Shown here in pieces: positions 1,102 through 61,541 of a stretch of DNA of 64,000 nucleotides (positions within the stretch are counted from its first letter, which is position 1; every line of letters begins with the position of its first letter). The position numbers and the translations under genes were made by a program. The notes below the pieces were generated by a model. The model was given only the letters and a program-made list of their open reading frames with translations. It was not told the origin of the DNA and made no database searches. Source of the stretch: an uncultured Gammaproteobacteria bacterium (lineage in GTDB: Bacteria; Patescibacteriota; Patescibacteriia; SG8-24; DYFX01); assembly GCA_964532415.1 (NCBI GenBank), contig CAZHHN010000003.1, positions 3,777 through 67,776 of the forward strand, in the 5' to 3' direction.

Positions 1102-1110
1102 CGGATCTTT

Positions 1111-42496: not shown

Positions 42497-43741
42497 TTAC
42501 GGAGCCGCCGGCAATTCTTCCAACAGGACCTGCGCGGTGTGGCGCGCCTTGTCGCGCAGGTAGACGACGGTGACGCCCTGTCCGGCCCGCTTCTTGGCCA
42601 CAAGGCTGGAGAGCGCATGTGCGTCGTCGATCGGCACGCCGTCGACCTCGAGCAGCACGTCACCGGCTTTGAGACCGGCCTTGTCGGCCGGGGAATTCCT
42701 GACGACGGCCGGACCGCCATCACCGGCAGCGATCAGCGCGCCGGCCGAAACGTCCAGACCGCCCGCCTTGGCCGACTCGGGCGTCAGCATCACGTAGCGC
42801 ACGCCCAGCCACGGTCGGACGATGCGTCCCTGGGATTTGACGCTGTCAATCACGACCTTGGCGGCATCGATCGGGATGGCGAAACCGATCGACTGGCCGG
42901 AGCGGTTGACCGCCGTGTTCATTCCGATCACCTTGCCGTTCAAATCGATGAGCGGTCCTCCGGAATTGCCGGGATTGATGGCAGCATCGGTCTGGAGCGC
43001 TTCTTCGAGCACCTCGGACGTTCCGGCGCCGTCGCCGGCCACCACGTGGCGGTTGATGCCGGAGATGACGCCTTTCGTGACGGTGTTGCGGTATTCGGAG
43101 AGCGCGTTGCCGATGGCGATGACCGTCTCTCCCGCCTCGAGCGTGTCGGAATCGCCGAGCGTCGGCACGGGAAGATTGGTGGCATCGATCCTGAGGACGG
43201 CGACATCGAGGATCGAATCGGTCGCGAGGACTTTGGCGGCATACGATTTGCCGTCGTTCATCACCACCTGATACTCGGCGTCGGCATCGGCCACCACGTG
43301 GCGGTTGGTCAGGATCAACCCGTCCGAAGAGATGACGAAGCCCGTGCCGCCGCCGATGACTTCCTTCTGGCCCGGTTGGGCCGGCTGGCGCTGCAAATTT
43401 GGCGGCGCGATGCCAAAATACTCCTCGAACGGGAAGGCGCCCGTGGCGTTGTAGAGCCTTGAAACGTCCTTGGAAATGACGACGCTGACGACCGACGGCG
43501 AGACCTTGCGGACGGCCTCGATCACCTGGCGATCGTCCTGTGAAACGGGCCGCGGGGCCGTGGCCGCATCCGGCTGGCCGCGCCACGGATAATATTTTTG
43601 ATTGAGCGAGATCGCGAACAGCACGCCGAAGGCGGCGCCCGAAAAGCTTCCGAGCAGGAAACTTACGAGAATGGCATACGCGAGCGGTTTGCGCGTTTTT
43701 CCGGCAACGGCGACGGGCAGGTCCTCCATAGCGGCGTTCAA
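42497..43741 (-). CDS. htrA: HtrA/DegP-family serine protease with PDZ domain
   Basis: Catalytic triad context (TNRHVV, DVAVLRI, GNSGGPL). C-terminal PDZ. N-terminal TM. TTG 43741 overlapping nrdR stop, or ATG 43729. Confidence 0.88.
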   Translation of the reverse strand: MNAAMEDLPVAVAGKTRKPLAYAILVSFLLGSFSGAAFGVLFAISLNQKYYPWRGQPDAATAPRPVSQDDRQVIEAVRKVSPSVVSVVISKDVSRLYNATGAFPFEEYFGIAPPNLQRQPAQPGQKEVIGGGTGFVISSDGLILTNRHVVADADAEYQVVMNDGKSYAAKVLATDSILDVAVLRIDATNLPVPTLGDSDTLEAGETVIAIGNALSEYRNTVTKGVISGINRHVVAGDGAGTSEVLEEALQTDAAINPGNSGGPLIDLNGKVIGMNTAVNRSGQSIGFAIPIDAAKVVIDSVKSQGRIVRPWLGVRYVMLTPESAKAGGLDVSAGALIAAGDGGPAVVRNSPADKAGLKAGDVLLEVDGVPIDDAHALSSLVAKKRAGQGVTVVYLRDKARHTAQVLLEELPAAP

Positions 43742-44253
43742 AGTTTTTTCTTGGCAAGGCGTTCCCTGCGACGCGGGCGCGCCACAGGCTTGGCCGGCCG
43801 GGTGGAGGACGTGAGATGCGCCAGCGCTTCCTGAAACGTCCTGACGTCCTCAAAGGCGCGGTAGACCGAAGCGAAGCGGATATAGGCCACCGTATCGACG
43901 TGTTTCAGGCGGTTCATGACGATCTCGCCGACCTCGCGGGTGGTCACCTCGCTTTTGCGGCGCTTCTGCAGGTCGCGTTCGACCTGATTGACCAGATCCT
44001 TGAAAGCCTCGGCGGTGATCGGACGCTTTTGCAGCGCCTTGCGCAGTCCGACTTCAAGCTTCTCGCGCATATAGGCCTCACGGCGTCCATCGCGCTTGAC
44101 GACCGTCAGGTCAAGGATTTCGCTCTCCTCCACCGTCGAAAAACGGAAATGGCATTTCAGGCACTGGCGGCGCCGGCGGATGCTCATCCCTCCCTGCGAA
44201 AGGCGCGAGTCGACGACCTTGGTGTCCTTATGGTTGCAGGCGGCGCACCTCAC
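43738..44253 (-). CDS. nrdR: transcriptional repressor NrdR
   Basis: Zn-ribbon [17 protein letters not shown]...CLKC plus ATP-cone. GTG start overlapping the ftsZ stop. Confidence 0.88.
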
Positions 44254-45494
44254 AGCATCTTCTTGCGGATGAAGGCCGGGATGTCGAGCTCCTCCTCTTC
44301 CGCCCGCGGTTGGACCGGCGCCGTCGCGGCCGGACGGAAGCGCTGCGGCTCGGTGTCGATCGATTTGACGCGCTTCGGCAGAACCGGAGCTTTGGACGCT
44401 TCGAACGCGTCGCGCTCGGCCGGTTCGTCCTGATGTTCCTGTTTCGCTTCGGTCGGACGGGCAAACGGCGCGCTCCGGGGCGACGAAACGGCGCCGGCCG
44501 ACAGGATGCTCTTCATCGAAGCGCTCATCTGCGAACGCTCCTGCCCGTCAAAGCCGGTCGCCACGACCGTCACCTTGATTTCGTCTTTCATCGTTTCGTC
44601 GATCACGGTGCCGAAGATGACCGTGGCGCCTTCGTCGGCCTTTTCGGTCACGACCTTGGCGGCTTCGGCGACCTCGAGCATGCCCAGATTCGGTCCGCCG
44701 GTGACGTTCATCAGGATGCCGCGGGCGCCCTCGATCGAAACTTCCAGGAGCGGGCTGGCGATCGCCTGCTTGGCGGCGGCGGCGGCACGACTTTCTCCGG
44801 ACGCCCGGCCGATGCCCATGAGCGCCGAGCCCTGGCCGTGCATGATTTTCTTGACGTCGGCGAAGTCGACGTTGACCAAGCCGGGCACGGTGATGAGTTC
44901 GCTGATGCCCTGCACGCCCTGACGCAGCACGTCGTCGACAATCTTGAAGGCATCCAGCAGCGAGGTGCTCTTGTCGATCAGGCCGAGCACACGGTCGTTC
45001 GGAATGGTGACGATCGTGTCGAGCTGTTCTTTGAGATTGCGATAGCCGGTCTCGGCGATCTCGCGGCGCTTGGCGCCCTCGAAGCCGAAAGGCCGCGTGA
45101 CGACGGCGACCGTCAGCGCGCCGAGGTCACGGGCGATCTGCGCCACGATCGGCGCCGCGCCGGTGCCGGTGCCGCCGCCCAAGCCGCAGGTCACGAAGAC
45201 CATGTCGGCGTCCTTGAGCGCTTCGCGCAACTCGTTGGCGCTTTCTTCGGCCGCGTGCTTGCCGACTTCCGGGTCCATGCCGGCGCCGAGGCCGCGCGTG
45301 ACGGTTTTGCCGATGTGGATTTTCACCGGCGCGTGCGAATGATGAAGCGCCTGCACGTCGGTGTTGACCGCGATGAACTCGACCCCCCGGATTTTGGAGA
45401 GGATCATGCGGTTGATCGCCGAGTTGCCGGAGCCGCCGACGCCCACGACTTTGATTTTGGCGAACGTTTCGACGGCCGGTTTCACTTCGCCCAT
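44250..45494 (-). CDS. ftsZ: cell division GTPase FtsZ
   Basis: GGGTGTG tubulin signature. NTD (T7 loop) motifs. C-terminal conserved peptide DIPAFIRKK. Confidence 0.95.
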
Positions 45495-45536
45495 AGGTGA
45501 TGAATTCCGTTTAGCGCTTTAAAGCTTTCATCCACC

Positions 45537-45569
45537 GTACAAAAAAAAGAAAACCGTATCAAGGGTTTT
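45537..45569 (-). terminator. weak AT-rich hairpin + T-run between ftsA and ftsZ (attenuator/terminator; ftsZ promoter region)
   Basis: minus strand AAAACCcttgatacGGTTTT followed by cttttttttgt. Intergenic region is markedly AT-rich with TTGAAC-like box. Confidence 0.3.
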
Positions 45570-45602
45570 TGAACATAAAAATTGTTCAATTTATGCCCAC
45601 GT

Positions 45603-46853
45603 TCAGGGCAGCAGCGAACGCAGCAATTTTTTGAGCTTGCCGGCGACCTGAAGCTGTCCGAGCTTGCCGCCCTGAGCCCGCGCCGTTTCCGACACATGAT
45701 GACCCCAGAGCACCAGCCCGACCGCCGTCGAAAAAGCGATGTCGTTGGTGCGGTCCGTGATGCTTGAAACGTTGACTGGATAGCCGAGCGCGGCCGGCAG
45801 CCGCAGCTGCGTCTTGGCCATGTCGACCAGGCCGTTCAGCTTGGCTCCCCCGCCGGTCAGGATGACGCCGGCCGGCAGCCGCCCGCTGCGATCGATCCTT
45901 TTCAGCTCCTTGTCGATCCTCGAAAAAATTTCCTCGATGCGTGCCTCGATGATTTCGGCGACGAACTTTTTGCTGACGACCTCGTCTTCCTCCGCACCCA
46001 GGTCGGCCAGACGAATGTCTTCCTTCCTGACATCGCGGGTCGAGGCGATGCCGTGTTCGATCTTGACGCGTTCGGCGACGTCGATTGAAGTGCGCAGCCC
46101 GATAGCCACGTCGGAGGTGATATGCTCGCTGCCGATCGGCAGGACGACCGTACGGAGCACGTCGCCTTCTTCATACACGGCCAGCGAAGTCGTTGACGCG
46201 CCAATCGAAACGACCGCCACGCCCAGGTCCTTTTGACGCGGGCTGGCGACCGCCTCGGCGGCGGCGAGGATGCCGAGCACGACGTCGTCGATTTCGATGC
46301 CGGTGCGATAGACGCACTTCGACAGGTTCTTGAGCTGGGAAGAGAGGCTCTGGATGATCTGGGCGTCGACCTCCAGGCGGATGCCGGTCATGCCGACCGG
46401 ATCCTTGATGCCCGACTGCCCGTCGACGATGAAGCTTTTGGGCAGCACGTGCAGGATCTCGTAATTGAGCGGCGTCGCCACGGTCCGGGCGGCCTCGAGC
46501 GCGCGTTCGACGTCCTCTTCCCGGATTTCGCCGTCGGAACGGGAGACCGCCACCACGCCTTTGGATTCCTGGGACACGACATGGCTGCCGGAAATGCCGA
46601 TGAAGGCCCGGTCAATCTGGACGCCCGTCATCCGCTCGACCTTTTCAAGGCAGGTGGAAACGGACGAGATGGCGTCTTCGATCGAAGTAATGATGCCCTT
46701 GCTGACGCCGGCGGAAGGCGTTTCGGCGGCCCCGATGATCTGGATCGATTCGCGACCGGATCCTGGGGCGGAACGCTGGCCGACGACAGCACGCACCGAC
46801 GAAGAGCCGATGTCGAGTCCGGTGATAATGTCACTCTGGGTGGATTTCGCCAT
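45603..46853 (-). CDS. ftsA: cell division protein FtsA (actin-like ATPase)
   Basis: N-term MAKSTQSDIITGLDIGSSSVRAVVG matches FtsA. Full-length actin-fold domains. Confidence 0.9.
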   Translation of the reverse strand: MAKSTQSDIITGLDIGSSSVRAVVGQRSAPGSGRESIQIIGAAETPSAGVSKGIITSIEDAISSVSTCLEKVERMTGVQIDRAFIGISGSHVVSQESKGVVAVSRSDGEIREEDVERALEAARTVATPLNYEILHVLPKSFIVDGQSGIKDPVGMTGIRLEVDAQIIQSLSSQLKNLSKCVYRTGIEIDDVVLGILAAAEAVASPRQKDLGVAVVSIGASTTSLAVYEEGDVLRTVVLPIGSEHITSDVAIGLRTSIDVAERVKIEHGIASTRDVRKEDIRLADLGAEEDEVVSKKFVAEIIEARIEEIFSRIDKELKRIDRSGRLPAGVILTGGGAKLNGLVDMAKTQLRLPAALGYPVNVSSITDRTNDIAFSTAVGLVLWGHHVSETARAQGGKLGQLQVAGKLKKLLRSLLP

Positions 46854-46858
46854 GAAAG

Positions 46859-47227
46859 TCACGTGAACGCGGAAAAGACGTGCGGCCAGAACACCAAGAT
46901 GCCCACGATGGCGGCGCCGACGGAACTGACCAAGACCGCGGCGGCCATCATGTCCTTGATCTGCTCCGCGTAGGCATGCATGCGCGGCTTGAAGAGATCG
47001 ACCAGCCGCTCGACCGCGCCGTTTAGCAATTCTAGCACGAGCGTGAAGGCCGCGACAACGACAAGAAGCGCCGTTTCGCCGCGTGACAGGCGGAAGACGG
47101 CGATCAGGACCGCGAGCAGCGCCGCGGCCATGAGCTGGATACGAAAACTCTGCTCCTCGCGGGCCAGCGTGGCGATGCCGTTCCAGGCGAAGCGCAGGCT
47201 GCGGAAAAAACGGCGGATATCAAGCAT
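46859..47227 (-). CDS. dgkA: diacylglycerol kinase (DgkA family)
   Basis: 121 aa, 3 TM. Conserved EExxxR / AAxxLV..E..NxAxE-like motifs (LLNGAVERLVDL). Confidence 0.7.
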   Translation of the reverse strand: MLDIRRFFRSLRFAWNGIATLAREEQSFRIQLMAAALLAVLIAVFRLSRGETALLVVVAAFTLVLELLNGAVERLVDLFKPRMHAYAEQIKDMMAAAVLVSSVGAAIVGILVFWPHVFSAFT

Positions 47228-47663
47228 AGCCGAGCCGTTTCAAGACGCGGGACTGGAGCGCGAACATCGCCTTTTCCTCCCGCGGAGAGACATGATCGTA
47301 GCCGAGCAGATGAAGCGTGCCATGGACGAGCATCAGGGCGATCTCGCGACGGACGGGCTTGGCGGCCGCCTTGGCCTGACGGGTCACCTGTGGCATCGAG
47401 ATTACGAGATCCCCCAGAAGGTTCGGACTCTCATCGCCCACCCAGACGCCGTCGTTGCCGAACGACAGGACGTCCGTCGTTGCAGGCTTGCCGCGCCAGG
47501 CGGCGTTCAGACGCGTCATTTCGGCGTCGCCGACGAAGACGACACCGACTTCTTCGACGCTGTGCACCTTTACGGCCCTCAGCGTCGCCACAACGACGCG
47601 CTTTACCCACGCATCGCCGACCGGCGCCTCGACGCGGCGGACGACGGATACGCCGGTGTTCAT
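47220..47663 (-). CDS. ybeY: rRNA maturation endoribonuclease YbeY
   Basis: HGTLHLLGYDH metal-binding motif. Confidence 0.9.
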   Translation of the reverse strand: MNTGVSVVRRVEAPVGDAWVKRVVVATLRAVKVHSVEEVGVVFVGDAEMTRLNAAWRGKPATTDVLSFGNDGVWVGDESPNLLGDLVISMPQVTRQAKAAAKPVRREIALMLVHGTLHLLGYDHVSPREEKAMFALQSRVLKRLGYA

Positions 47664-48607
47664 GGCTTTGCGCCAAAGCTGTTCAGGACCATCGTGAAGG
47701 TTGTGGAGAACAGCGTTTTATAGGTGGGATTGGCCTGAAGCTGCGGTCCGATCGCGATCACATACATCTTTCCGCCCAACGGAATATCGGCGGACAGGCC
47801 GTCTTGGGCAAGAACGCCTTCCAAGCCGGATTTGGTCATGAAGGTTTGGATCGGCAGGCCCGCAAGCTGGGAATGGCCGCTGAGATAGAAGTCGGAAGCG
47901 GACTTCCCTCCCGGGTTATCCTGTACCTGCACCGACAGCACCTCCTGGCCCTGGTTCGAGACGAACGCCGTCTGCCCGGGCAGCTGCGTCCATTGGGTCG
48001 GGATCAGGATCTGCCACTGTCCATCGGCCGGACTGAACGTTTTGACCAAGCCGGCTTCGACCAGTTTGGTGGGTTTGAAGCCGGCTGGGTTGTAGAGATT
48101 CGTGACTTCGAGCGCATCCGAATAGCCGTCGGAGTCGGAGTCGGCGATGGACGGCGAAGTGCCGTAGAGCGCTTCCTCGGCGTTCGTCAGGCCGTCGGCA
48201 TCGTTATCGGCTTCCGGTCCCGGGGTCGGAGGCGTCTCGGTTGTCGTCGTGGCCGATGCCGGTTCGGGCACGGAGCCCGGTGCAGACGGCGGTGCTTCGG
48301 GCTGCGGCGCAGGCAATGTCACGGACGGGGCAGGAGGCACGGGCGTGGTTTTCGGCAGCAGGAAACGCCAGGCGATGAAGCCAAGGCCGACCAAAAGCAG
48401 CAGCGCGAAGACGGGGATCAGCAGCCATTTCCTGCTTTGGGCGGTTTGCGGATGCGGAGCCGGTCCGGCCACAGCGGACACGGGCGGCGATCCTTCCTTC
48501 GGGAGATTCGCCCGCGCCGCCAAGCCGTAAAACTGCTCGGGGATCGTGTAGATCACCGGCTCCTGCGTTTTGATCGGCGCGGTCGTTTGTACGGGCTGTT
48601 CCGACAT
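47660..48607 (-). CDS. bitopic membrane protein with thrombospondin type-3-like Ca-binding repeats (paralog 1 of 3)
   Basis: N-terminal TM (WLLIPVFALLLLVGLGFIAW). Pro-rich linker. DNDADGLTNAEE / DSDSDGYSD motifs. C-terminal beta-rich domain. Confidence 0.6.
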   Translation of the reverse strand: MSEQPVQTTAPIKTQEPVIYTIPEQFYGLAARANLPKEGSPPVSAVAGPAPHPQTAQSRKWLLIPVFALLLLVGLGFIAWRFLLPKTTPVPPAPSVTLPAPQPEAPPSAPGSVPEPASATTTTETPPTPGPEADNDADGLTNAEEALYGTSPSIADSDSDGYSDALEVTNLYNPAGFKPTKLVEAGLVKTFSPADGQWQILIPTQWTQLPGQTAFVSNQGQEVLSVQVQDNPGGKSASDFYLSGHSQLAGLPIQTFMTKSGLEGVLAQDGLSADIPLGGKMYVIAIGPQLQANPTYKTLFSTTFTMVLNSFGAKP

Positions 48608-48621
48608 GCAGCAATCGTGAT

Positions 48622-49266
48622 TTATGGATTCGTGGGAAGTTGGAGCAGTTTGCCCGGTCCATTGGGATTGTAGCCGTTCTTGACTTCGTCCCCATCCTTG
48701 AAAGAATCGCCGTCGGTGTCGGCACGCAGAGGATCGGTCTTGTAGACTTCGACTTCCTCCCGGTCGGTCAGGCCGTCACCGTCGGTGTCGACTTTGGTGG
48801 GGTCGGTTCCGGCAGAAATTTCCTGCGCTTCAGTCAGACCGTCACCATCCCTATCCTCATCGGCTCCTATGGTGGGACCGCCTCCACCGCGATCGGCACC
48901 GGAATCATCCGTGGTCGATGGCACGACCGGCGTGGCAGGGGCGACGGGTTCGGTGGGAACCTGCGGCTGGGGCGTTTCGGGCGTCGACGTGGCGGCAGGG
49001 ACGGGAGCGACCGAGCCCTTGGCACGGAAAAAGAGGAGATACGCCGCCGTACCGGCGCCTCCCACGAACAGGACGATCAACAGGATGAAGACCCATTTCT
49101 TCCCGAACGGCGCCCGTTCGAGAATGACCCCCGATTCCCCGACTGGCAGCGGCGTCGTGCCGGCCGTCGGAGAAACAGGAGAAGAAGGCGCTCCGGGCGC
49201 TTTTTCGGACGGAATCTCAGCGAAGATGTCGGCCGGCTCGTTTTTGTCGTCGAAGAGGAAAATCAT
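48622..49266 (-). CDS. bitopic membrane protein with TSP3-like Ca-binding repeats (paralog 2 of 3)
   Basis: TM (WVFILLIVLFVGGAG). DEDRDGDGLTEAQE, DTDGDGLTDREE, DTDGDSFKDGDE motifs. Confidence 0.6.
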   Translation of the reverse strand: MIFLFDDKNEPADIFAEIPSEKAPGAPSSPVSPTAGTTPLPVGESGVILERAPFGKKWVFILLIVLFVGGAGTAAYLLFFRAKGSVAPVPAATSTPETPQPQVPTEPVAPATPVVPSTTDDSGADRGGGGPTIGADEDRDGDGLTEAQEISAGTDPTKVDTDGDGLTDREEVEVYKTDPLRADTDGDSFKDGDEVKNGYNPNGPGKLLQLPTNP

Positions 49267-49709
49267 AGATTGAACTTTTCATGACCCTCGATAGTCGCGG
49301 GCGTGCTGGCTTTATTCTTCGGATCTGAACCGTATTTCAGGACTTCGTCGCCGTCGCTATAGCCGTCCCCGTCCGTGTCTTTTTTGTCGGGATCGGTTCG
49401 GTAGACCGTCTCGGCGGCATCCGTGAGGCCATCGCCGTCCCGATCCTTGCCTTTGGTAAAGTCCGGCGTCGCGTTTTTGACGCCGCTCACGCCGGAGGGC
49501 GGCGGCGTCGTCTCACCTTTCCCGCCGGTTCCCGCACGCGTGGTGGAAGTTCCGGTGGCGCTGGTCGCAGTCGGCGGTGGAGCGTTACCCGATTCAGGCG
49601 ATGGAAAAGCGAAGCGGGCACGCCAGGCAAGGATGGCGACAAGGATCAATCCTACCAGAACCGCGCCGATGCTTCCAGCGATAACGAGTTGTTTGAAGCG
49701 CTGGTCCAT
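49263..49709 (-). CDS. bitopic membrane protein with TSP3-like Ca-binding repeats (paralog 3 of 3)
   Basis: TM (LVIAGSIGAVLVGLILVAIL). DRDGDGLTDAAE, DTDGDGYSDGDE motifs. Confidence 0.6.
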   Translation of the reverse strand: MDQRFKQLVIAGSIGAVLVGLILVAILAWRARFAFPSPESGNAPPPTATSATGTSTTRAGTGGKGETTPPPSGVSGVKNATPDFTKGKDRDGDGLTDAAETVYRTDPDKKDTDGDGYSDGDEVLKYGSDPKNKASTPATIEGHEKFNL

Positions 49710-49712
49710 AGG

Positions 49713-52700: not shown

Positions 52701-55700
52701 GAAGCAGTCGAGGTCGCTACTGCAGGCCGCCAGCGCGTTCTTTCCCGCGAGCATCAACACGGCGCCCGTTCCGTCCTTGCAGACGCCAACCGCCTGGTCG
52801 GAAGCGGCCAGATTGGTATTGAAACGCACGTTCTTGATCAGGCGATTGAAGATTTCAGCAGTACGCGCGTCAGCCTTGTCGTTGAATGCGAAGACGTAGA
52901 CGTACGACTGCAACCCCGGGTCGCCGTATTTATCGGCGGCCGTCACGTAGACAGTGCGTTCATCCTTGATGGCGGCATACCCGTCGACCGTCGCGGCCTG
53001 GATCGATCCGGAAAAGTGCTGCGCCTGGAACCAGTCGGCGGGCGCCAGGCGTTCGGGGTTGGCGTAGACGCGCACGCCGATCGCATCGCTCAGTTTTTCT
53101 TCCGGAGCGAACTGGAAGAACAGGTCTTTCGAGAGGCAGCCGTCGCCGGCGCGGCAGTCAGCCGAAGTGAAGCAGGCCTTGGGCTGGCTGCCGTCGAGCG
53201 TGGCGGCGCAGAAGCGCAGCAGGTTTCCGCCCGGACCGGACTGTCCCTGAACCGGCAGCGCCTGCAGTTCCGGCAGCGGTGCCTTATCGTTGTCGCGGCA
53301 ATAGAAGAATTCGAAATGCGTGGACGGATCGACATACGGCGCCCAGGCGCCCGTGACCGTATCGCGCTCCGGCCAGGGCCGTTCGCACAGCAGGATCGTG
53401 AGATCGGAGCGCCCGGTCTTTTGATGCCCGACCGTCGATGGCGAAAATTGCGTATCGGCCGTGATGGTGGCGATCGCCAATACCTGTTCTGTCCCGTTCT
53501 GCCCTTTGTTGGCCTGCACGCTGGCGGACGGGGTGTTCGAAGCCGTCAGCGTCAGCAGCGAACCGGGTGGCGTCGCTTCCGGCACGGTCGACCAGTTCCA
53601 GCTCCAGTCGTAGACCCCCGGCAACGGGGCGATCGGCTCGAGTTGACCGGCGCGGTTGGTCATGGGCGTGGCGACGATCGTGAGCGGCGTGGCGGAATCC
53701 TGAATAAGATCGGCGGCCGGATTCATCTGCACCGTATCGAAGCTGCAGATGTCATTGCCGGTGCTGAATTCCTGGATGAAATCTGGCCCGGCCGGATACC
53801 CCACACCCTTCACGCTCTTGACGCCGCCCGGCCCGACCTTGACCGTCACGCGATATTTCCGCTTGGCATCGAACGCCTGCCTGGGAGTGAAGACCGAAGT
53901 CGTGCGGGCGCCGCCTGCCATCTGATCTTTCAGGTGCGTGAAATTCCCTTCGACCGGAGCGCAGGGACCGGCCGCCGTGGCCCGTCGTCCAATGAGCGAG
54001 CGCAGAAACTCTCCAGTCCGCGCCAACCAACTGGCTGGTCCGGATTTCACGGCCACCGCGCCACAGGCTTCGACAATCAGCCCACCTTGGAGCGAACCGG
54101 GCTCCATCTCTTCGCCGAAGGTCACGCTGATCTGGGCATTCCGGCATTCGTTGCCGCCTTTCGGCTGGATGTCCGGGGGGGCGGGGCGCGGGTAGCAGCA
54201 GGCGCCGGCGCCGCATGAGAGACTGAGGCCGGACGCCGCGCCGAAAGCCGCGCAATCGGCGTCCGTGCGGCAGGAACATTCGACACTGACGCCCGCCTGG
54301 CCGGAAACCGGACCGACGGCGGCAGCGACCGAGGCCGTGCAGCTGTTCTTCGCATCGCATTGATTCTGCGCCTCAAGCACCTGCGTTGCATCGATGTTCG
54401 CATCGAGCGTCAGCGCTTCGCATTCCTCTCCTCCCCCGTTCTGGACGCCGTTCAGCGGATCCATCGGCTTGACGGTCACGACGGTGTCGCCGCAGAAAGC
54501 GCGCAAAGCCGGATCGGAACCGGTCTTGGTGCACGCCGACGAGCAGCCCGAACCGGGCTGACCGTTGTCGGAACCGGCATCGCACCCTTCGCCTTTGCCG
54601 TAATCGATGACGCCGTTGCCGCAGCAAGAGCTGCCGGAGGCGCACGAGACATGATTGCCGCGCAGGAGACACGACGGGGAACAGGCGAAGCCGGGCTTGG
54701 TCGGGTTCTGCTCATCGCCCGGTCCGAACGTGATCGGCGCGTGATTCGGCAGAAGCAGGCGCGTCGCAAGGCCGCCGGCCCCCAGTTGATACTCGCATTC
54801 TTCTCCCAGCTCGAGCCTGCCGTTGCCGCAGACGTAGACATTCTGTCCCGAACCTTCGAGCAGGCAGCGGGAACCGCAGCCGTCGCCATCGGTCGTGTTG
54901 CCGTCATCACAGGCTTCGCCGACGCCGACCGATCCGTTGCCGCAGGCCGAAACGCCCGGCGTGGATCTGGAAAAAAGGCAGGCGGTCGTGCAGCCGGAAA
55001 CCGCTTTTCCATTGTCGGGCCCGGCATCGCATTCTTCGCCGCGGTCGGGTTGGACCGTGCCGTCGCCGCAACCGTTGGTCACGGTATTGCCGGTCCGCTG
55101 GCAATTCTGATTGCAGCCGTTCAATCCGGGCGTGTCGCAGGCTTCGCCGTGCTCGAGCACGCCGTTGCCGCAGGCCGGGGTACCCGCCGGCTTGCTGCCG
55201 GTCATGAGACAGGACGAGGAACAACCCGGCGGCAGGGCCGGATTCGTGTTGAGCAACGCTCCCGGAGGAACATCCGGCAGGAAATGGAAGGCGGAAGGGC
55301 TGGCCGGCGCCTGGGTGCGCGCCCATGACCAGTTGAAGCTGTCCGCGTTCAAGATCTGTCCACCGGCCGCACACTTGTCCGGCGAGCTGAGCGGCAGCGC
55401 CGAAACCGAAGCGACCTGCCCGATGTATCGGAGCGTCGTCTGTCCCGGCTGGACTGTCACCGTCTGCGGGCCGCAGGGATTGGCGCTGGTGCGGGTACGG
55501 AACGTCCAGCTGAAGGCCGTATCGTTATAGTTCAAACCGGTCAGCGGAGCCTGGCTGGTGCTGCGTGCCGTTCCGAAAATCACCGCGCGGTAATACGTGT
55601 CCGGCACCAGATCGGGGTTACCGAACGTCAGCAGGTTGCTCGACGGCTGATAAACGGGCGTGATCGGTACTTCCCCGTCGAAGGCCAGGCAGGACTCGTT

Positions 55701-58700
55701 GCGGCAACGGTACAATTTGACGTTCGCAAGCAGACTGTCGGCGCCGGAAACCGACATCGGAGTGTTGAAAGAAGCGAAGGCGACCGCGTTGATGCAGGCT
55801 TCGGTGCAATCATGCGGGCCATACCCCGTCACGCGGGGATTGGCGTAATCGATCGTCAGGTCGCCCTGATCGTTCTTGCCGTCAACGATGACGCGAATAT
55901 GGACCGGGGGACCCGGATCCGTTTCGGAGACCGGTGAGGCCAATGCCTGACAGTTGTCGCCGGCCGGCACCGTCCCGACGGTGGCCTTAGACATGTCGGA
56001 GGAGTTCCAATCGACGATCCGGCCGGCGCACGAAAGGATGATACAGCGGTCGGAAAGCGGGAAAGCCTGATACGGCTCCTGCTGATCGGCGGCGGAAATC
56101 AGGCCCTGAGCCGGATCGACATGCACGCCCGCCAGGACGCACGATCCCGCTCCGGTCTTGAACGTCGTGACATAGTCGCCGCCGGCACGGCCGTCGAAAT
56201 TCCCGTCGAGCGGCTGCGCGGCGAGATTCGCCACACGGAGGCTCTTGATCTGGTCTCTGAGCGTCAGCCGATACCACGTATTCGGCTGGAGACTGCCGAC
56301 GGGCAGCGTCATCAGGCTGTGATCCTGAGGATTGTACGGCACGATCGTCGGCGCGCCGGTTCCGGCCACGGCCGTGCAGTTCGCGGAGGCGGAAGCGCCG
56401 GTGCCGCAGGCTTCAAGCTTCACCGATCCGGCGTTGAACGTCGAGGAATCCATCGCCAGGCTGAAGCGCACGGCGATCGCCCCGGTGTCGGTACAGACGT
56501 TTTGCGCGCCCTTGTACGGGTTCGGGCTCGGCATCGAGGTCGGCGGCGAAAGCTGGCAGGTGGCATTTTCGATGACGACCGGGAAAACCGGAATCGGACC
56601 GGTCGAGAACTGCCAGGCAAAGCCTCCGGCGCCAACCGATCCGCCGCAGTTTGCACGGCAGGCGCCGTCGCCGCAGCAGGCGCGGCCACTTCCGCAGGCG
56701 GCGTCTCCCCCGTTCTGGCGACAGTCGCTCACGCGGAAACTCACCCCGTTCGAGGAGAGAGGCGCGGGACCGGAGAACGTTTTGATTGCGACCGGACCGG
56801 TCACGGCGGCATCGGGCACGGTGGCCGTGATGCCGGAGGCGCGCCACTGGCCGATCGAAGCGGCATTCTTACCGTCATGGAAGACGACCGCGTCGGGATG
56901 CTGCGCCGTGAAGGCCGGCAAATCGCCTGAAGCGATGTCGCCGAAGCCTTCACCGTAGAGCGATACGGCGGTGCCGGCCGGACCGTTGTCGGGATCGACG
57001 CGGCACAGACCGGGAGCGAGCGGCGAGGTGTCGGCGGCGAACGACTGCGCGTTCGACGTGCGTCCGTCCGAGCGCACGACCGTGACGGCATAGGTACCGA
57101 GCTGGATGGCGGTGTTGGCGGGCGTGGTAAAGCGGGCGGGCACTTTGACCGTCACGCTCGCGTCCGTCCAATAGCCGGCCGCGCACTGCGCCGGGAAACT
57201 GATGTCGCCGATCGCCTCGCCGGCGGCATTCTTGAAACGCACCGTTCCGCCCGCGCCGAAGTTGGCGCCGAAGACGGAAAGATAGGTGCCGACCGAACCG
57301 GACGTCGGCGTCACGAAATCGATGCGCGGATCGGTGCCGGCCGCCGGCGGCTCGACCCGCACACAGGCGGTATTCGATGGCTGGCCGCCGACCAAAACCC
57401 GCATCAGATATTCCGCGCCGTCGGCGCCGGTTTCCACATTGGGCACGACCGGCTGCAGACTGGTGTCGCCCCACGGCGAAACCTGAGGCGCATCGGCGGC
57501 CGACGACCAATCCTGCACCTGCGTGCAGTCGGCGGCGGAGTGCGCGAACTGCACGCGCGAATCGCCCTGGGCGGCGCCGAAGGCGTTGCCGGTGACGGTG
57601 AGCGACTGCCCGGTTTTGACGGAAACCGGAGAAACGCCGCAGATGCCCGGACGCGCCGTATCATTGATTTGGAAATCCGTGACGATCGGACCGAAGGCAT
57701 CGTTGGTGGCGTCTTTCTTGCCAGCGGAGGTGGTGACCTGGACCGGGCCGGTGGCGGCGCCGGCCGGCACGACGATCACGATGCGGCTGTCCGACCAGGC
57801 GCCGCCACAGGAAGCCAGAGCGGCGTCTTTTTCGTCGCCGGAGGCGGCCGCGCCGAGAAACGTCACCTTGCCGGGATTCGTGCCGAAATGCGTACCGGTG
57901 ACCGTGACGAGATTGCCGGGCTTGCCGTCGCGCAACTGGACGTCGACGATGCGCGGCGCCTCGACGCAGACGCCGTTCTGGCATTCGCCGGAGCTGCAAT
58001 CGGCGTTGTTCGTGCAGGTCGCGCCCGTGCAGGCCCCGCAGGAGCCGCCGCAGTCGACGCCGACTTCATCGCCGTCCTTCACGTGGTTAAAACAGGCGGC
58101 CGGGCGAACGGTCACGCGCACCGGCGCCGAAGACGCCACATCGCCGTCGATATTGGTGGCACGCGCCGTGAGCGTGACCGTTTTGACCGGCACGACGGGG
58201 GCGTTATCCCAAACCGCCTGACTCGAATAGGTATTGGCGGCGATCGGCTGCGCAGCGCCGTCGGCGGCGAAAAACGCGCCGTCGGCCGAATATTCGACGC
58301 TGGCGATGCCGTTCTTATCGCCGGCCACGGCCTGTAGCGCCACCAGGCTTCCGGCCGGGACGGAGGCGCCGTCCGATGGCGCGGTCAGGCTGACGGTCGG
58401 CGCCGCCGTGTCGACCGTTGCGCCGGTCCGGAAGGTCTGCGAACAGCTGGCGCCGATCCCGCAATTGACCGTACGGGGGTCGGTTGTCGAAGCGTTCTTC
58501 AGCCCAGAACGGACGGTGACCTGATAGTCTTGGTTCGGCTCAAGGCAGTGCCGGTCATCGTTCGGCGGCGGGCAGGTCTGCACCGGCTGGAGGCGGATGG
58601 TGGCGTTCTGGACGACGGGATCGTAATCGACCGGCGTCCGCGCAGAGCCGGCCACCTTTTCAAGCAGGAGGTTGGCTTTGATGTTGGCCGCGTCGTCGGT

Positions 58701-59252
58701 CGGAGCGATGTTGAAAGTGACGGCGGCGACCACGTCGACCTTCGCCAACGAGCCGCGCGGCTGGATGGCTGTGGGACGGAAGCTTCCGCCCGGTCCGCCT
58801 CCCAAGCCACCGCCGCCCGGTCCACCACCGCCGCCCGGTCCACCGGCTCCTCCACCCGTCGTGGCATTCAGCAGAGCGCTCAGGATGAAGGAGACGATCG
58901 CGAAGGATGTCAGAATGATGATGAGTCCGATGACCGCCGCCGTGATGGTCTGCTTGGCGCGCTCGATCTTTCTTTCTTCACCCGCCGCCGTCATCCAGAC
59001 GAAGCCGCCGTAGAGAATGAGCAGCAGGGCGATCGTACCGAGAACGCCAAGCGCGATCCGCACGATGCGGGCGATGGTGATGCGGACGTCGGTCGTGCCG
59101 GTGCCGATGGCGGTGCCGACTTGGCTCGGCAACAGCTCATTGGCGGTTACGCCCTGGGCATGGACGCCGTGCGCCGACGCCAACCACAGACAGGGCGCGA
59201 CGAGCGCCAGGGTGAGAAGCAGGAAGCGGTGGCGGCGGAAAAACATCCTCAT
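49713..59252 (-). CDS. giant (3179 aa) Cys-rich extracellular protein with VirB2/TrbC-pilin-like N-terminal hairpin anchor, IPT/TIG-like and Ig-like domains and many Myxococcus-type Cys-rich repeats
   Basis: Signal peptide ...ASAHGVHAQ. Then TANELLPSQVGTAIGTGTTDVRITIARIVRIALGVLGTIALLLILYGGFVWMTAAGEERKIERAKQTITAAVIGLIIILTSFAIVSFILSALL (TM1, basic loop, TM2) and a Gly-rich linker. CGNGxxExGEACDxG...C repeats throughout. ~8% Cys. Confidence 0.8.
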   Translation of the reverse strand: MRMFFRRHRFLLLTLALVAPCLWLASAHGVHAQGVTANELLPSQVGTAIGTGTTDVRITIARIVRIALGVLGTIALLLILYGGFVWMTAAGEERKIERAKQTITAAVIGLIIILTSFAIVSFILSALLNATTGGGAGGPGGGGGPGGGGLGGGPGGSFRPTAIQPRGSLAKVDVVAAVTFNIAPTDDAANIKANLLLEKVAGSARTPVDYDPVVQNATIRLQPVQTCPPPNDDRHCLEPNQDYQVTVRSGLKNASTTDPRTVNCGIGASCSQTFRTGATVDTAAPTVSLTAPSDGASVPAGSLVALQAVAGDKNGIASVEYSADGAFFAADGAAQPIAANTYSSQAVWDNAPVVPVKTVTLTARATNIDGDVASSAPVRVTVRPAACFNHVKDGDEVGVDCGGSCGACTGATCTNNADCSSGECQNGVCVEAPRIVDVQLRDGKPGNLVTVTGTHFGTNPGKVTFLGAAASGDEKDAALASCGGAWSDSRIVIVVPAGAATGPVQVTTSAGKKDATNDAFGPIVTDFQINDTARPGICGVSPVSVKTGQSLTVTGNAFGAAQGDSRVQFAHSAADCTQVQDWSSAADAPQVSPWGDTSLQPVVPNVETGADGAEYLMRVLVGGQPSNTACVRVEPPAAGTDPRIDFVTPTSGSVGTYLSVFGANFGAGGTVRFKNAAGEAIGDISFPAQCAAGYWTDASVTVKVPARFTTPANTAIQLGTYAVTVVRSDGRTSNAQSFAADTSPLAPGLCRVDPDNGPAGTAVSLYGEGFGDIASGDLPAFTAQHPDAVVFHDGKNAASIGQWRASGITATVPDAAVTGPVAIKTFSGPAPLSSNGVSFRVSDCRQNGGDAACGSGRACCGDGACRANCGGSVGAGGFAWQFSTGPIPVFPVVIENATCQLSPPTSMPSPNPYKGAQNVCTDTGAIAVRFSLAMDSSTFNAGSVKLEACGTGASASANCTAVAGTGAPTIVPYNPQDHSLMTLPVGSLQPNTWYRLTLRDQIKSLRVANLAAQPLDGNFDGRAGGDYVTTFKTGAGSCVLAGVHVDPAQGLISAADQQEPYQAFPLSDRCIILSCAGRIVDWNSSDMSKATVGTVPAGDNCQALASPVSETDPGPPVHIRVIVDGKNDQGDLTIDYANPRVTGYGPHDCTEACINAVAFASFNTPMSVSGADSLLANVKLYRCRNESCLAFDGEVPITPVYQPSSNLLTFGNPDLVPDTYYRAVIFGTARSTSQAPLTGLNYNDTAFSWTFRTRTSANPCGPQTVTVQPGQTTLRYIGQVASVSALPLSSPDKCAAGGQILNADSFNWSWARTQAPASPSAFHFLPDVPPGALLNTNPALPPGCSSSCLMTGSKPAGTPACGNGVLEHGEACDTPGLNGCNQNCQRTGNTVTNGCGDGTVQPDRGEECDAGPDNGKAVSGCTTACLFSRSTPGVSACGNGSVGVGEACDDGNTTDGDGCGSRCLLEGSGQNVYVCGNGRLELGEECEYQLGAGGLATRLLLPNHAPITFGPGDEQNPTKPGFACSPSCLLRGNHVSCASGSSCCGNGVIDYGKGEGCDAGSDNGQPGSGCSSACTKTGSDPALRAFCGDTVVTVKPMDPLNGVQNGGGEECEALTLDANIDATQVLEAQNQCDAKNSCTASVAAAVGPVSGQAGVSVECSCRTDADCAAFGAASGLSLSCGAGACCYPRPAPPDIQPKGGNECRNAQISVTFGEEMEPGSLQGGLIVEACGAVAVKSGPASWLARTGEFLRSLIGRRATAAGPCAPVEGNFTHLKDQMAGGARTTSVFTPRQAFDAKRKYRVTVKVGPGGVKSVKGVGYPAGPDFIQEFSTGNDICSFDTVQMNPAADLIQDSATPLTIVATPMTNRAGQLEPIAPLPGVYDWSWNWSTVPEATPPGSLLTLTASNTPSASVQANKGQNGTEQVLAIATITADTQFSPSTVGHQKTGRSDLTILLCERPWPERDTVTGAWAPYVDPSTHFEFFYCRDNDKAPLPELQALPVQGQSGPGGNLLRFCAATLDGSQPKACFTSADCRAGDGCLSKDLFFQFAPEEKLSDAIGVRVYANPERLAPADWFQAQHFSGSIQAATVDGYAAIKDERTVYVTAADKYGDPGLQSYVYVFAFNDKADARTAEIFNRLIKNVRFNTNLAASDQAVGVCKDGTGAVLMLAGKNALAACSSDLDCFHTFAAPPTGLHCDADKDKIRRDLHRWQDVRGIAQALETIHDSTGFYPKLESGTFVRGFSTSKWPSWSQQLGPAGMIVDPLNAFNRCDAFGSECSLSGKVCASDTDCNGSGDVCRTKFEAETCYDDRAGVFACPAASHVYQYRSLGGVDYRLSVDLEYTAYSWLGSSCAARTSEASCRTGIGCSWLPNGPVSGVCQTRVSVTPVCAGLFTDGTDKCLATGAACTDSAHCGVRDQCVPAGVPLVGPAASPACGNGLIESGETCEIGQEHNVACASGGQDGERCGSSCQWEVVQACPGAAACGNGALESYAGETCDDGSQTGQYGRCRSGSYGCVARCVNTTPRASFDGNCADGSCDLGPICSTNADCAGFGALSVCTDRMNFCGDGVKNGPELCDDGARNGEYGFCAWDCRGAGPRCGDNLVNGAEACDGDRQDAPGVCVPSGSTLADSATIAGATQSCAKNSDCGSGMTCALCAVATGGLPQTRIKGCFPATAPAGQACTFDAWSACKPSGACGNGKVEGSEECDNGTANSTTGACLTTCRKNVCNDGFLLPGVEQCDNGAADGVRCSPQYGLTCNYCKTDCSIETVSGAFCGDKTVQSPPESCDPGPVSSWCSRTYTNPNDSSHVKSCASNSDCLPGVCREYVGGVVTATPCHSSSDCTASQFCQGGEGQCLSYNIQCRPEPYSDTQGAPGSAHYFDGSCTSCSNACVGLTNKSPNYCGDKTVQPQFGEQCEVVGDPNATGPSGSGSYYGCSGDCSYDAASGYCGDGIMQGGTVEACDGSDYTADTGNGGAPSCTSMGWGTAGAVACAKSCTLYGGGCSDGPLSPGDVRIRIAWKNPPDTRDIDAHVKLPVYGSSQQIYYLNKGSATQDPHVWLSWDDTNAQLGDNSGRDGFPVPYGLEIMTINWRTDGAYWPSSAGDPYKFFVHQFSSGVSGMVGTKVTICTYDATKPNNADCGRTFTAGSNGNNAYWHVFDFYGGADAAPTIVNVNTFTPISP

Positions 59253-59253
59253 A

Positions 59254-61035
59254 TCACGGCTGGAGGAAACCGCAGGCGGTTTGCGACGGCAGGCCGTTGC
59301 AGCAGAACGGCTCGCTGCCGGTGCAGACGGCCTGACCGTTGGCCGGCGCGAAGCAGTTCTGGTGCAAATCGCGGAGCGCCGGCGTCAGGTCGGCGGCGTA
59401 GCCCTGATTGACGCTGAACAGATCGTGATTGAAGAACGCCTGGGTCTGGTCTGGCGTGCCGCCGGAGGTCGAGGAAACTTCCTGGCTGCTCACCGCGTAG
59501 TTGGTGGGTGCGCCCTGCGGACCGGGCAGCAGGCGCATAGCATCCGTCGTGATACTGGTCGCGCTCATCAGTTTCGAGAACGTCACCGACATCCGGGCAT
59601 CGCGCGGGATATCGCCCTGGAGAATGGCGGGATCCTGCGAAACGACCTTGGGCGGCGTGAGATCGATCTGGTTGCCGGTCGAAAACGCGAACCCGTAATC
59701 GTCGGCGGGGCCGCCTTGGGCAGTGCCGTTGCCGTTGCCGTCAAGCGAGTTGCCGGCCATGTCCGTCACGCCGTTGGCCGGAAAAACGCCGGCCGGCGGA
59801 GCGGTCGTGAGCGCATCGGCCCTGATCTTCACGGAGATGTCCTGATTGGCAGGCAGGCAATACACCTGTTCGCCGCAGGAATTGGTGCCGCAGACCTGAC
59901 TCGTGCGGAATTCGACCGTACGATAGGCGTTGCCGATCGTCTGCGTGCCCTGCACGACGTTGCCGCCGGTACGCGTCACCGAAAGGCCGGCATTCAGACT
60001 GACCGGATCGACCGGCTCGCTGAACGTCGCCTGGATGAGCGAATTGCGCGCCACGCCGTTGGCGCCGTCGGGGGGCTGCACCGATTCGACCGTCGGCGGC
60101 GTGACGTCGAGCTGCGTTGACACTTGGAATTCCCAAAGGTAGCCGGAGCTGAACGTGCCGGAAAACGCGGCGGCGCCGCCTTCTTTTTTAACGCCGCCCG
60201 ACCCTCCACGAAGCACCACGGTATAAAAGACGTTCTCCGACGGGCTTCCGAAACAGTCGGTCGGGCAGTTCTTCTGCAGGAAGACGAAGGTCTTTCCGTC
60301 GCCCGCCGGCGCGATGTCGATGGCGGCCGATGTCAGGCTCTGGGCGAATTTTTGCGGGAACTGATTGGAATTTCCGGCGATCTGCGAGGATTTCAGGATG
60401 GCGACGGACCCGTCGGGCCCCACCGCCAGCGAGGCCGGATCGATCTTCTCTTTGAAGGTGACGGCGATGCGGGTGTTGCGCGGGACGCCGGTGGCATTGC
60501 GGGCGGGATAATGGCTTTCGACGATGCCATTGCCGAGCGCGCCGGCCGGACAGGTGGCCGAGAGACCGATGCAGGCCTGATCGTCGCCGGCGCTGCCGCC
60601 GCCCGTTCCCGGCCCCCCGCCTTCGCTCGCGCCGAGCAGCCGGCTGATGATGAACGAGGTGATGCCGAAAGCCGCCAAGATGATCACCAAGCCGATGATG
60701 GCGCTCGCCAGCGTGCTTTTGGCGCGCCGGACTTTTTCCTCATCGCCGGCGGCCGTCATCCAGAGGAAACCGGCGTAGAGAACGAGGAGCAGCGCAATCG
60801 TGCCGAGGAGCCCGAACGCGATCCGCACGATGCGGGCGACGGTGATGCGGATGTCAGTCGTGCCGGTGCCGATCTCCGCGCCGAGCTGATCCGGCAGAAG
60901 TTCGTTGGTCGTCACCGCCTGGGCATGCGCCAGATGAACGAAGCCCAGGCACGCAAAAGCCGCCAGCACGAAACCCATGGCCGTGCAGGCGGCTTTTGCG
61001 AACCGTCGGGAACGTGGCGCTCTTCCTGAAAGCAT
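59254..61035 (-). CDS. 593-aa surface protein with the same VirB2/TrbC-pilin-like N-terminal anchor plus SbsA/Big_5-like Ig domains
   Basis: N-terminal ~135 aa ~70% identical to the giant protein N-terminus (TTNELLPDQLGAEIGTGTTDIRITVARIVRIAFGLLGTIALLLVLYAGFLWMTAAGDEEKVRRAKSTL...). Gly-rich linker. Repeated ...TPPTVESVQPPDGANGV... Ig-like units. Confidence 0.8.
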   Translation of the reverse strand: MLSGRAPRSRRFAKAACTAMGFVLAAFACLGFVHLAHAQAVTTNELLPDQLGAEIGTGTTDIRITVARIVRIAFGLLGTIALLLVLYAGFLWMTAAGDEEKVRRAKSTLASAIIGLVIILAAFGITSFIISRLLGASEGGGPGTGGGSAGDDQACIGLSATCPAGALGNGIVESHYPARNATGVPRNTRIAVTFKEKIDPASLAVGPDGSVAILKSSQIAGNSNQFPQKFAQSLTSAAIDIAPAGDGKTFVFLQKNCPTDCFGSPSENVFYTVVLRGGSGGVKKEGGAAAFSGTFSSGYLWEFQVSTQLDVTPPTVESVQPPDGANGVARNSLIQATFSEPVDPVSLNAGLSVTRTGGNVVQGTQTIGNAYRTVEFRTSQVCGTNSCGEQVYCLPANQDISVKIRADALTTAPPAGVFPANGVTDMAGNSLDGNGNGTAQGGPADDYGFAFSTGNQIDLTPPKVVSQDPAILQGDIPRDARMSVTFSKLMSATSITTDAMRLLPGPQGAPTNYAVSSQEVSSTSGGTPDQTQAFFNHDLFSVNQGYAADLTPALRDLHQNCFAPANGQAVCTGSEPFCCNGLPSQTACGFLQP

Positions 61036-61512: not shown

Positions 61513-61541
61513 GGGAGATGCGGGCTTCCCCGCCACAAGAC

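Follow-up and report, generated by a model that had tools for sequence, protein, structure and literature searches.

To our knowledge, the cell surface and the division machinery of Patescibacteria are almost uncharted outside a few cultured Saccharibacteria. In Bacillus subtilis, the housekeeping genes that concern us here follow the order rpsU-yqeY ... phoH-pgpH-ybeY-dgkA-cdd-era. Across Terrabacteria, ybeY, phoH, dagK and era are recurrent neighbors (reviewed in PMC10582724), and VirB2-like pilins are common and essential in the type IV secretion system (T4SS) clusters of Patescibacteria (PMC12102498, PMC10633639). Here we analyze a 64,000-nucleotide stretch of contig CAZHHN010000003.1 (the window), in which a 17.3 kb block (43738-61035) places the genes of two pilin-anchored surface proteins of 593 and 3179 residues and of three membrane proteins with TSP3 repeats directly upstream of ybeY, dgkA, ftsA and ftsZ. 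All coordinates are positions in the window and refer to its minus strand unless marked (+). The reading we favor, to which we give about an even chance, is that one clade of Patescibacteria (Uhrbacteria, Magasanikbacteria, Buchananbacteria and relatives) has passed the block down vertically since ancient times as an operon-like unit, and that the surface module in it forms a growth-coupled contact fiber.

Gene content and packing of the block

Genes were identified by Pfam profile matches, with NCBIfam and Rfam as further libraries, and strands were assigned from an open reading frame (ORF) map of the 64 kb window guided by third-position GC content (GC3). The window is 62% GC, and the block is 99.3% coding, with 126 of its 17,298 bases (0.7%) non-coding and with five overlaps of 4 nt and one of 8 nt. 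From the 593-aa gene to htrA the junctions measure, in order, 1, 3, −4, 14, −4, −8, −4, 108, −4 and −4 nt.

Transcription would run from the gene of the 593-aa surface protein (59254-61035) through that of the 3179-aa giant surface protein (49713-59252) and those of the 148-aa (49263-49709), 214-aa (48622-49266) and 315-aa (47660-48607) TSP3 membrane proteins, the last of which overlaps the start of ybeY by 4 nt with its stop. The housekeeping part begins with ybeY (47220-47663; Pfam YbeY, 118 bits), encoding an endoribonuclease/ribosome maturation factor, and with dgkA (46859-47227; DAGK_prokar, 95.6 bits), a member of the prokaryotic diacylglycerol/undecaprenol kinase family that overlaps ybeY by 8 nt. 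The junction between dgkA and ftsA (45603-46862; Pfam FtsA and SHS2_FTSA) is −4 nt if ftsA starts at a GTG, or +5 nt if it starts at an ATG three codons later. After a spacer follow ftsZ (44250-45494; Tubulin and FtsZ_C) and nrdR (43738-44253; Zn_ribbon_NrdR and ATP-cone), which overlap by 4 nt, and a gene for an HtrA-type serine protease with a PDZ domain (42497-43741), which overlaps nrdR by 4 nt.

Downstream of htrA lie pyk (41092-42486), encoding pyruvate kinase, and a histidine kinase gene. The Pfam PK match of pyk (390.7 bits) begins at residue 86 of the longest ORF and the protein has 478-480 aa in relatives; the actual start codon probably lies close to 42486, some 10 nt past htrA. Upstream of the block are yqeY (61060-61536; Pfam YqeY, 130.7 bits), encoding a GatB/YqeY-domain protein, then a gene for an 83-aa S21-like ribosomal protein, a 391-aa ORF and the 3′ part of hisS. 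The S21-like gene (61542-61793), referred to below as rpsU, scores below the cut-offs of both libraries (Pfam 19 vs 27 bits, NCBIfam 19.7 vs 28.95 bits) and is kept at the same position in relatives with 41-87% identity.

An earlier note on this DNA, made from the letters alone, had named the genes of the block, running on into htrA and pyk; they all lie at the stated positions on the minus strand, and the Pfam matches bear the note out. The note had also presented the genes as co-oriented and tightly packed. The packing exceeds chance, because identical junction overlaps recur in independent species. The common orientation is not specific to the block, because nearly all credible ORFs of the 64 kb, about 90% of the genes, lie on the minus strand.

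Gene order in related genomes

The best matches with a name for the window FtsA come from metagenome-assembled genomes (MAGs) of Uhrbacteria, Magasanikbacteria, Buchananbacteria and the "Patescibacteria group", and FtsA homologues in Patescibacteria are 59-100% identical. In the NCBI taxonomy, Uhrbacteria, Magasanikbacteria and Buchananbacteria are candidate phyla of their own within the Parcubacteria group; GTDB places them in one class, ABY1. We compared five contigs anchored on FtsA (identity 87, 72, 65, 63 and 62%), and all five carry the giant gene, two to three TSP3 genes, ybeY, dgkA, ftsA and ftsZ in this order, followed by nrdR, htrA and pyk where the contig reaches that far.

A second set was anchored on the core of the giant (aa 1945-2350), its best-conserved stretch without repeats, and comprises 41 loci from as many species genomes, mapped by tblastn and ORF chaining. 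Loci L016 and L026 belong to the Uhrbacteria MAGs nzgw360 and nzgw366 of a New Zealand groundwater study (PMC9938205), and L011 to the complete genome CP129476.1. In 25 loci the sequence extends 7 kb or more past the giant gene; 23 of these have ftsA downstream of it, including loci of Uhrbacteria, Magasanikbacteria and Buchananbacteria type. Upstream, rpsU, yqeY and the 593-aa gene precede the giant gene wherever the flank reaches, and an orthologue of the 593-aa gene lies directly 5′ of it in 27 loci. The full recurrent order is hisS-rpsU-yqeY-[593-aa protein]-[giant]-[2-3 TSP3]-ybeY-dgkA-ftsA-ftsZ-nrdR-htrA. Every locus with enough flank has the surface module intact; in most it is linked to ybeY-dgkA, and in most to ftsA-ftsZ as well.

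Because the order recurs across related species, the arrangement is ancient and vertically inherited. The recent insertion that the earlier note had considered, should relatives lack the synteny, is excluded by the 23/25 species loci and by the contigs of Magasanikbacteria and Buchananbacteria type. The note had also called the placement of surface genes before ftsA and ftsZ unusual, which is true relative to model bacteria and untrue within this clade, where the arrangement is the norm. Our full-text literature searches found no published description of the gene cluster. Through its 4-nt overlaps, ybeY-dgkA is the partner that the surface module keeps most tightly, ahead of the division genes, to which the tie is not obligatory.

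Conserved order alone is weak evidence for functional coupling, because unrelated housekeeping genes share the block. The strongest alternative to a functional unit, possible though in our view improbable, is that the module was inserted once between yqeY and ybeY, rides a housekeeping promoter, and has stayed in place through rare rearrangement, unrelated to division. The conserved block from hisS to pyk does include functionally unrelated genes (hisS, nrdR, htrA and pyk), most window genes share a strand in any case, and the module can be separated from its neighbors without being lost. In a Komeilibacteria genome, the giant gene is followed by genes for a 1142-aa protein, a TSP3 protein and a 315-like protein, then ybeY and dgkA and then unrelated genes, with ftsA and ftsZ absent from the locus; at locus L032, the module is followed by clpP and secDF, and the link to ybeY is broken. 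Passive retention is harder to reconcile with the 4-nt overlap of the TSP3 gene with ybeY, which is kept across lineages whose proteins are only ~30-40% identical and thereby implies that selection has gone on acting on this junction or, at the least, on co-transcription. Moreover, the flanks outside the block do vary, with a histidine kinase or PPDK gene after pyk and an extra 391-aa gene after hisS.

The 391-aa ORF of the window (61969-63144), which is without a convincing family match, lies between hisS and the promoter-like site of rpsU. As only 30-140 nt separate hisS and rpsU in relatives, including the close L008 and L014, it looks like a lineage-specific insertion. At three further loci (L033, L041 and L048) the core match adjoins an htrA-like gene without rpsU, ybeY or fts neighbors, which suggests paralogous core-containing proteins elsewhere in some genomes. 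Many third-party-annotated MAG records titled "uncultured Gammaproteobacteria bacterium" (L008, L009, L013, L015, L017, L019, L022 and others) carry this Patescibacteria-type locus, with FtsA up to 87% identical to that of the window, and their titles are evidently generic or wrong.

Promoter-like and terminator-like signals

We compared the junctions across loci using our own scan for hairpins followed by T-runs (terminator-like sites) and a scan for TTGACA-type promoter-like sites. Junctions inside the module and with its housekeeping partners are tight: the last TSP3 gene and ybeY leave no gap in 20/25 loci, mostly with an exact 4-nt overlap, and ybeY and dgkA overlap in 20/23. Median gaps are 5 nt between the 593-aa and giant genes, 9 nt between the giant and the first TSP3 gene, and 11.5 nt between TSP3 genes. 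The spacer between ftsA and ftsZ has a minimum of 45 nt and a median of 107 nt, and the gaps from yqeY to the 593-aa gene and from hisS to rpsU both have a median of 85 nt.

Terminator-like sites reach densities of 3.0 per kb between ftsA and ftsZ, with a hairpin in nine loci, 6.3 per kb between ftsZ and nrdR, 1.9 per kb between hisS and rpsU, and 1.35 per kb between yqeY and the 593-aa gene (seven loci, mostly of Uhrbacteria type). Coding sequence mostly has 0.03-0.16 per kb, and the value rises to at most 0.58 in dgkA and other T-rich membrane-protein genes. The scan of the loci found no terminator-like hairpin at the junctions of TSP3 genes with one another, of TSP3 with ybeY, of ybeY with dgkA or of dgkA with ftsA. 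Promoter-like sites occur in the ftsA-ftsZ spacer of 16/22 loci, and a TTGACC/TTGACA-17-TAnnnT site lies upstream of rpsU in 12/17 (5.8 sites per kb), compared with 0.06-0.24 per kb in coding sequence.

Promoter and terminator prediction between the giant gene and ybeY or ftsA, which the earlier note had named as a check, thus returned almost nothing and no conserved signal. Since conserved promoter-like and terminator-like signals are lacking from the giant gene to ftsA, co-transcription of the surface genes with ybeY, dgkA and ftsA is the simplest reading. The spacer of at least 45 nt, the promoter-like sites in 16/22 loci and the hairpins in nine suggest that the unit ends at ftsA, its predicted last gene, and that ftsZ is at least partly autonomous. 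The co-expression with division genes proposed by the note is therefore likely for ftsA, which is reached through packed, signal-free junctions, and is unlikely to be strict for ftsZ, which in many loci has its own promoter-like site and a terminator-like hairpin before it.

In this genome, the long unit likely starts at a promoter-like site upstream of the S21-like gene (TTGACC-17-TATCCT, 61847-61875). Between this site and a strong ribosome-binding site lies a hairpin, TGAGACC-AT-CGTCTCA, with a T-run (61826-61841). The close relatives L008 and L014 carry a GAGAC..GTCTC hairpin with TATTTTTA at the same place and with loop changes; Rfam gave no match at gathering score for the window hairpin, which may act as a leader or attenuator for the unit that rpsU heads. 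The gap from yqeY to the 593-aa gene is only 24 nt in the window, without a hairpin. Five Uhrbacteria-type loci (L020, L023, L026, L038 and L039) have a clear terminator after yqeY, followed by a [CT]ATCCACA element that resembles a DnaA box. In these loci a TACAAT −10-like hexamer follows this element after ~40-60 nt, upstream of the 593-aa gene, in a spacer that is missing from the subgroup of the window. The terminator after yqeY and the ATCCACA...TACAAT element suggest that the Uhrbacteria-type unit starts at the 593-aa gene.

The ftsA-ftsZ spacer of the window (45495-45602; 35% GC) contains a perfect palindrome, TTGAACA-N7-TGTTCAA (45569-45589), a T-run after a degenerate hairpin (45540-45552), and a weak promoter candidate, TTGATA-18-TACGGT (45533-45562). 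The palindrome core TGAACA-N7-TGTTCA is found once per locus in L001, L006, L007/L038, L010-L012, L014, L021, L022, L042 and the window, and nowhere else in ~0.8 Mb of fetched loci. Its position is the ftsA-ftsZ spacer at every locus but L042, which has it a short way upstream of ftsA. The palindrome is probably an operator for a regulator of ftsZ. It was considered as a LexA or NrdR box, but its GAACA-N7-TGTTC spacing does not appear to fit either.

Two large proteins on a pilin-like anchor

Both large proteins carry a signal peptide and a VirB2-like two-helix anchor, with three hydrophobic segments in each protein. The anchors match Pfam T4SS_pilin at 41.6 bits in the 593-aa protein and 30.9 bits in the giant, above the cut-off of 26.6 bits; the NCBIfam pilin model scores below its own cut-off. 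The two anchors are 67% identical over 108 residues. In the 593-aa protein the anchor is followed by three Big_5 immunoglobulin-like (Ig-like) domains. The giant continues from its anchor (aa 59-123) into a Gly-rich linker, a Big_7 domain, four TIG domains, a Big_5 domain, Cys-rich acidic repeats (with Pfam DUF4215 matches in the protein), an unassigned core, further Cys-rich repeats and a C-terminal tip, and contains 169 Cys in total.

Giant proteins from relatives align collinearly over 1,800-2,300 residues with 29-66% identity and are therefore true orthologues. Taken over all collinear orthologues, identity is 27-68%. Among 22 distant orthologues, 71-100% align in each 100-residue bin of aa 1-2800 and only 0-12% in aa 2800-3179 (49716-50855), which defines a conserved body and a variable membrane-distal tip. 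We tried a DUF2135/YfaP-like assignment for the tip and rejected it, as neither Pfam nor PDB returned a match even at permissive thresholds.

The core (aa 1945-2350; 52203-53420) is marked by the motifs FxFYCRD, DAIGVRVxN, SKWPSWS, DPxNxF and CPxxSxVYxY. An exhaustive HMMER search assigns it to a large family, which forms 1,364 clusters at 50% identity. Most of the proteins have 3,000-4,700 aa, and the labels of those with a name go no further than hypothetical, IPT/TIG, DUF4215 or cysteine-rich repeat protein. Its AlphaFold2 (AF2) model has a predicted local distance difference test score (pLDDT) of 71.6, and a Foldseek search of PDB with it gave no match below E 1e-3 (best E 0.03). A pseudopilin-like or type IV pilin identity of the core was rejected, because no pilin is among the Foldseek matches and PDB gave no sequence match.

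The earlier note had suggested that a surface attachment apparatus is co-expressed with the division genes, which in ultra-small epibionts would suit host attachment. On this reading, attachment to a host would be coordinated with the division of an epibiont through ftsA and ftsZ. We consider this unlikely. Co-transcription with ftsA is probable, as it would require, and yet ftsZ has its own promoter-like site, with a terminator-like hairpin before it in many relatives, and Komeilibacteria dispense with the link to the fts genes. The variable distal tip and the Ig-like and TIG domains are typical of adhesins; the body, conserved over 2,800 residues across orders, is unlike fast-evolving host-specific adhesins. 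Cultivated Patescibacteria are epibionts (PMC10633639, PMC11623550); for this clade, neither a host nor an epibiotic habit is known. Attachment to a host would be a hypothetical role, the variable tip being the only part of the giant that fits an adhesin-like function.

Other extracellular proteins are encoded in the window. A 404-aa Big_5 protein (9318-10532) adjoins a 952-aa protein (6429-9287) with Big_7, CBM_4_9 and polysaccharide deacetylase domains, and both share Ig-like domain types with the giant. A further cluster (469-5864) encodes an 886-aa SpaA_2/DUF11-type pilus-like protein and two sortase-domain proteins, of which one also has a peptidoglycan-binding domain.

Three TSP3 membrane proteins

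The three small membrane proteins have one transmembrane segment each. With a Pfam TSP3_bac (PF18884) cut-off of 25 bits, the 214-aa and 148-aa proteins score 65.6 and 48.6 bits. The 315-aa protein falls just below, at 23 bits; its homologues carry PF18884, and its acidic columns D134/D136/D138/D156/D158/D160 are invariant across 58 of them. The 148-aa protein is signal-anchored by its transmembrane segment at aa 8-26. The 214-aa protein consists of a cytoplasmic N-tail with FDDKNEPADIF, the transmembrane segment, a Pro-rich linker and TSP3 repeats. In the 315-aa protein, the cytoplasmic motif EPVIYTIPEQFYG precedes a transmembrane segment (aa 60-82), a Pro-rich linker, TSP3 repeats (aa 134-170) and a C-terminal PsbP/Mog1/DcrB-like domain.

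The cytoplasmic motifs are kept across orders, as MFDDxKxEPEDIF[AS] in the second TSP3 protein and [IV]x[TV][IM]PExF[YR] in the third, and each has a single occurrence in the window. Of the 131 homologues in the 315-aa family, two carry PF01789. The AF2 model of the 315-aa protein (pLDDT 84.8 overall, >90 over aa 130-315) matches CyanoP (2xb3) in Foldseek with E 2e-5, probability 1.0 and a TM-score of 0.50 on the target. We rejected the 315-aa protein as an FtsQ analogue, since this fold is PsbP/Mog1-like and not POTRA. A longer subfamily (430-540 aa; P0181-P0236), to which a Komeilibacteria copy of 539 aa belongs, has an inserted fibronectin type III domain.

The calcium-binding repeats of the three proteins also bear on a second doubtful reading, in which the giant and its 593-aa paralogue form a calcium-dependent surface layer (S-layer) or scaffold of the monoderm envelope of candidate phyla radiation (CPR) bacteria, the TSP3 proteins act as tethers and the linkage to dgkA and ftsA reflects envelope growth. 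The clade-wide presence of the proteins, the conserved body, the membership of dgkA in an envelope-lipid enzyme family and the apparently constitutive, rpsU-promoter-driven nature of the predicted unit all fit such a coat. Neither Pfam nor NCBIfam finds an SLH or other known S-layer domain, and proteins that form S-layer lattices are not typically 3,000-4,800 aa long with a variable tip.

It is more improbable still that the cytoplasmic motifs bind FtsA or FtsZ while the ectodomains bind the giant, forming a CPR-specific link between division ring and surface. The EPEDIF and IxTMPExF motifs persist across orders and have no second copy in the window; they are not known to match any FtsA- or FtsZ-binding peptide. 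The TSP3 genes lie upstream of ftsA at the same locus in most lineages, and Komeilibacteria and L032 keep them away from it. PsbP/Mog1-like domains are protein-binding scaffolds, and the 315-aa fold is unlike that of FtsQ or POTRA. We likewise give little credence to a lineage-defining envelope machine in which the VirB2-anchored pair would co-assemble through near-identical hairpins and the TSP3 motifs would couple it to FtsA and FtsZ, replacing missing FtsQ-type periplasmic parts.

A separate 1174-aa protein with TSP_3, DUF4215 and Laminin_G_3 domains is encoded at 25819-29343. The window also holds a tmRNA gene cut by its start (1-400 (+); Rfam 65.7 bits) and a single tRNA-Asp(GTC) gene (36314-36391).

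A putative growth-coupled contact fiber

The growth-coupled fiber that we favor would be built as follows. A self-contained surface module, comprising the 593-aa protein, a giant of ~3,000-4,800 aa and two to three TSP3 proteins, lies between the old housekeeping pairs rpsU-yqeY and ybeY-dgkA, with ftsA next. In this genome, one transcript would run from the rpsU promoter through the surface genes, ybeY and dgkA to ftsA, and ftsZ, nrdR, htrA and pyk would be read mainly from a promoter of their own. After Sec export, both large proteins would be held in the membrane by the VirB2-like two-helix hairpin and would project a long, disulfide-rich chain of Ig-like and Cys-rich domains with a conserved body and a lineage-variable tip. 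The single-pass TSP3 proteins may bind calcium outside the cell and present short conserved motifs inside it, and are probably partners or organizers of the fiber. Its most likely role would be that of a constitutive, growth-coupled surface fiber for contact with other cells or surfaces. The housekeeping wiring would serve to scale expression with growth, and not to tie the module to septation by a specific mechanism.

Several observations weigh against this picture. The broken links in Komeilibacteria and at L032, and the unrelated genes that share the block, have been described above. A 9/12 promoter match inside dgkA (47058-47029) makes internal promoters in coding sequence possible. The last 190 residues of the giant (aa ~2990-3179) have no Pfam or PDB match, and the core has no sequence match in Pfam, NCBIfam or PDB. 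The five surface proteins are presumed to associate with one another, and the contact role is suggested by domain types and the variable tip only. Finally, we know of no cultured member of the clade that shows an epibiotic lifestyle.

The analysis defines a clade-wide set of five uncharacterized envelope proteins with a fixed genomic address and a predicted transcription unit shared with ybeY, dgkA and ftsA. It also provides experimental handles, namely the conserved cytoplasmic motifs, the variable tip and the conserved palindrome before ftsZ. If these proteins form the main surface fiber or coat, they would be prime candidates for partner contact by uncultured CPR bacteria and could serve as markers in imaging and proteomics. 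Contact with the divisome, if it exists, would represent a new way to couple envelope and division.

Comparison with known systems

The locus resembles the terrabacterial phoH-ybeY-dgkA-era neighborhood in the adjacency of rpsU with yqeY and of ybeY with dgkA, the latter two overlapping here; related loci conserve these pairs at 16 and 23 junctions, respectively. It differs in having no phoH before ybeY and no era after dgkA, their places being taken by a TSP3 protein gene and ftsA. The space ahead of ybeY holds the 14 kb surface module, and dgkA leads into ftsA-ftsZ. As in the division and cell wall (dcw) cluster, ftsA directly precedes ftsZ on the same strand, an order kept in relatives, with a regulatory spacer and one or more separate candidate ftsZ promoters. 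Unlike in that cluster, there are no mur genes, ftsW, ftsI or ftsQ upstream of ftsA, where dgkA, ybeY and the surface genes stand instead.

The TSP3 calcium-binding repeats recall CglD and MtsD of Myxococcus, to which weak NCBIfam matches (37 vs a cut-off of 400 bits) extend over the repeats only. The proteins are of other sizes and architectures, and the locus lacks gliding machinery. With the VirB2/TrbC-like T4SS pilins (PF18895) the two large proteins share the Pfam family, the signal peptide and two hydrophobic N-terminal helices. Those pilins are small subunits (~100 aa), often arrayed beside virB4, whereas here the hairpin is fused to passengers of ~460 and ~3,050 residues, and none of the seven window ORFs of at least 590 aa encodes a VirB4-like ATPase.

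Three classes of large surface protein were considered and rejected. The RTX or type I-secreted adhesin class was excluded because there is no GGxGxD motif and no RTX Pfam match and the neighbors are not transport genes; the sortase-anchored LPXTG class, because neither large protein has an LPxTG, although sortase and SpaA-like genes occur elsewhere in the window; and the SLH class, by the same Pfam and NCBIfam searches that argued against a coat. What the giant does share with giant adhesins, both RTX proteins such as LapA and SiiE and LPXTG fibers, is a length of thousands of residues, tandem Ig-like domains, a variable distal end and a calcium dependence suggested by its partners. It differs from them in its N-terminal pilin-like hairpin anchor, its conserved body and a locus fixed within a housekeeping unit. 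Set beside these systems, the locus is a giant surface-fiber operon, of putative fiber function, with an unusual anchor, unusual partners and unusual genomic wiring, more general than the earlier note could know and more loosely tied to division.

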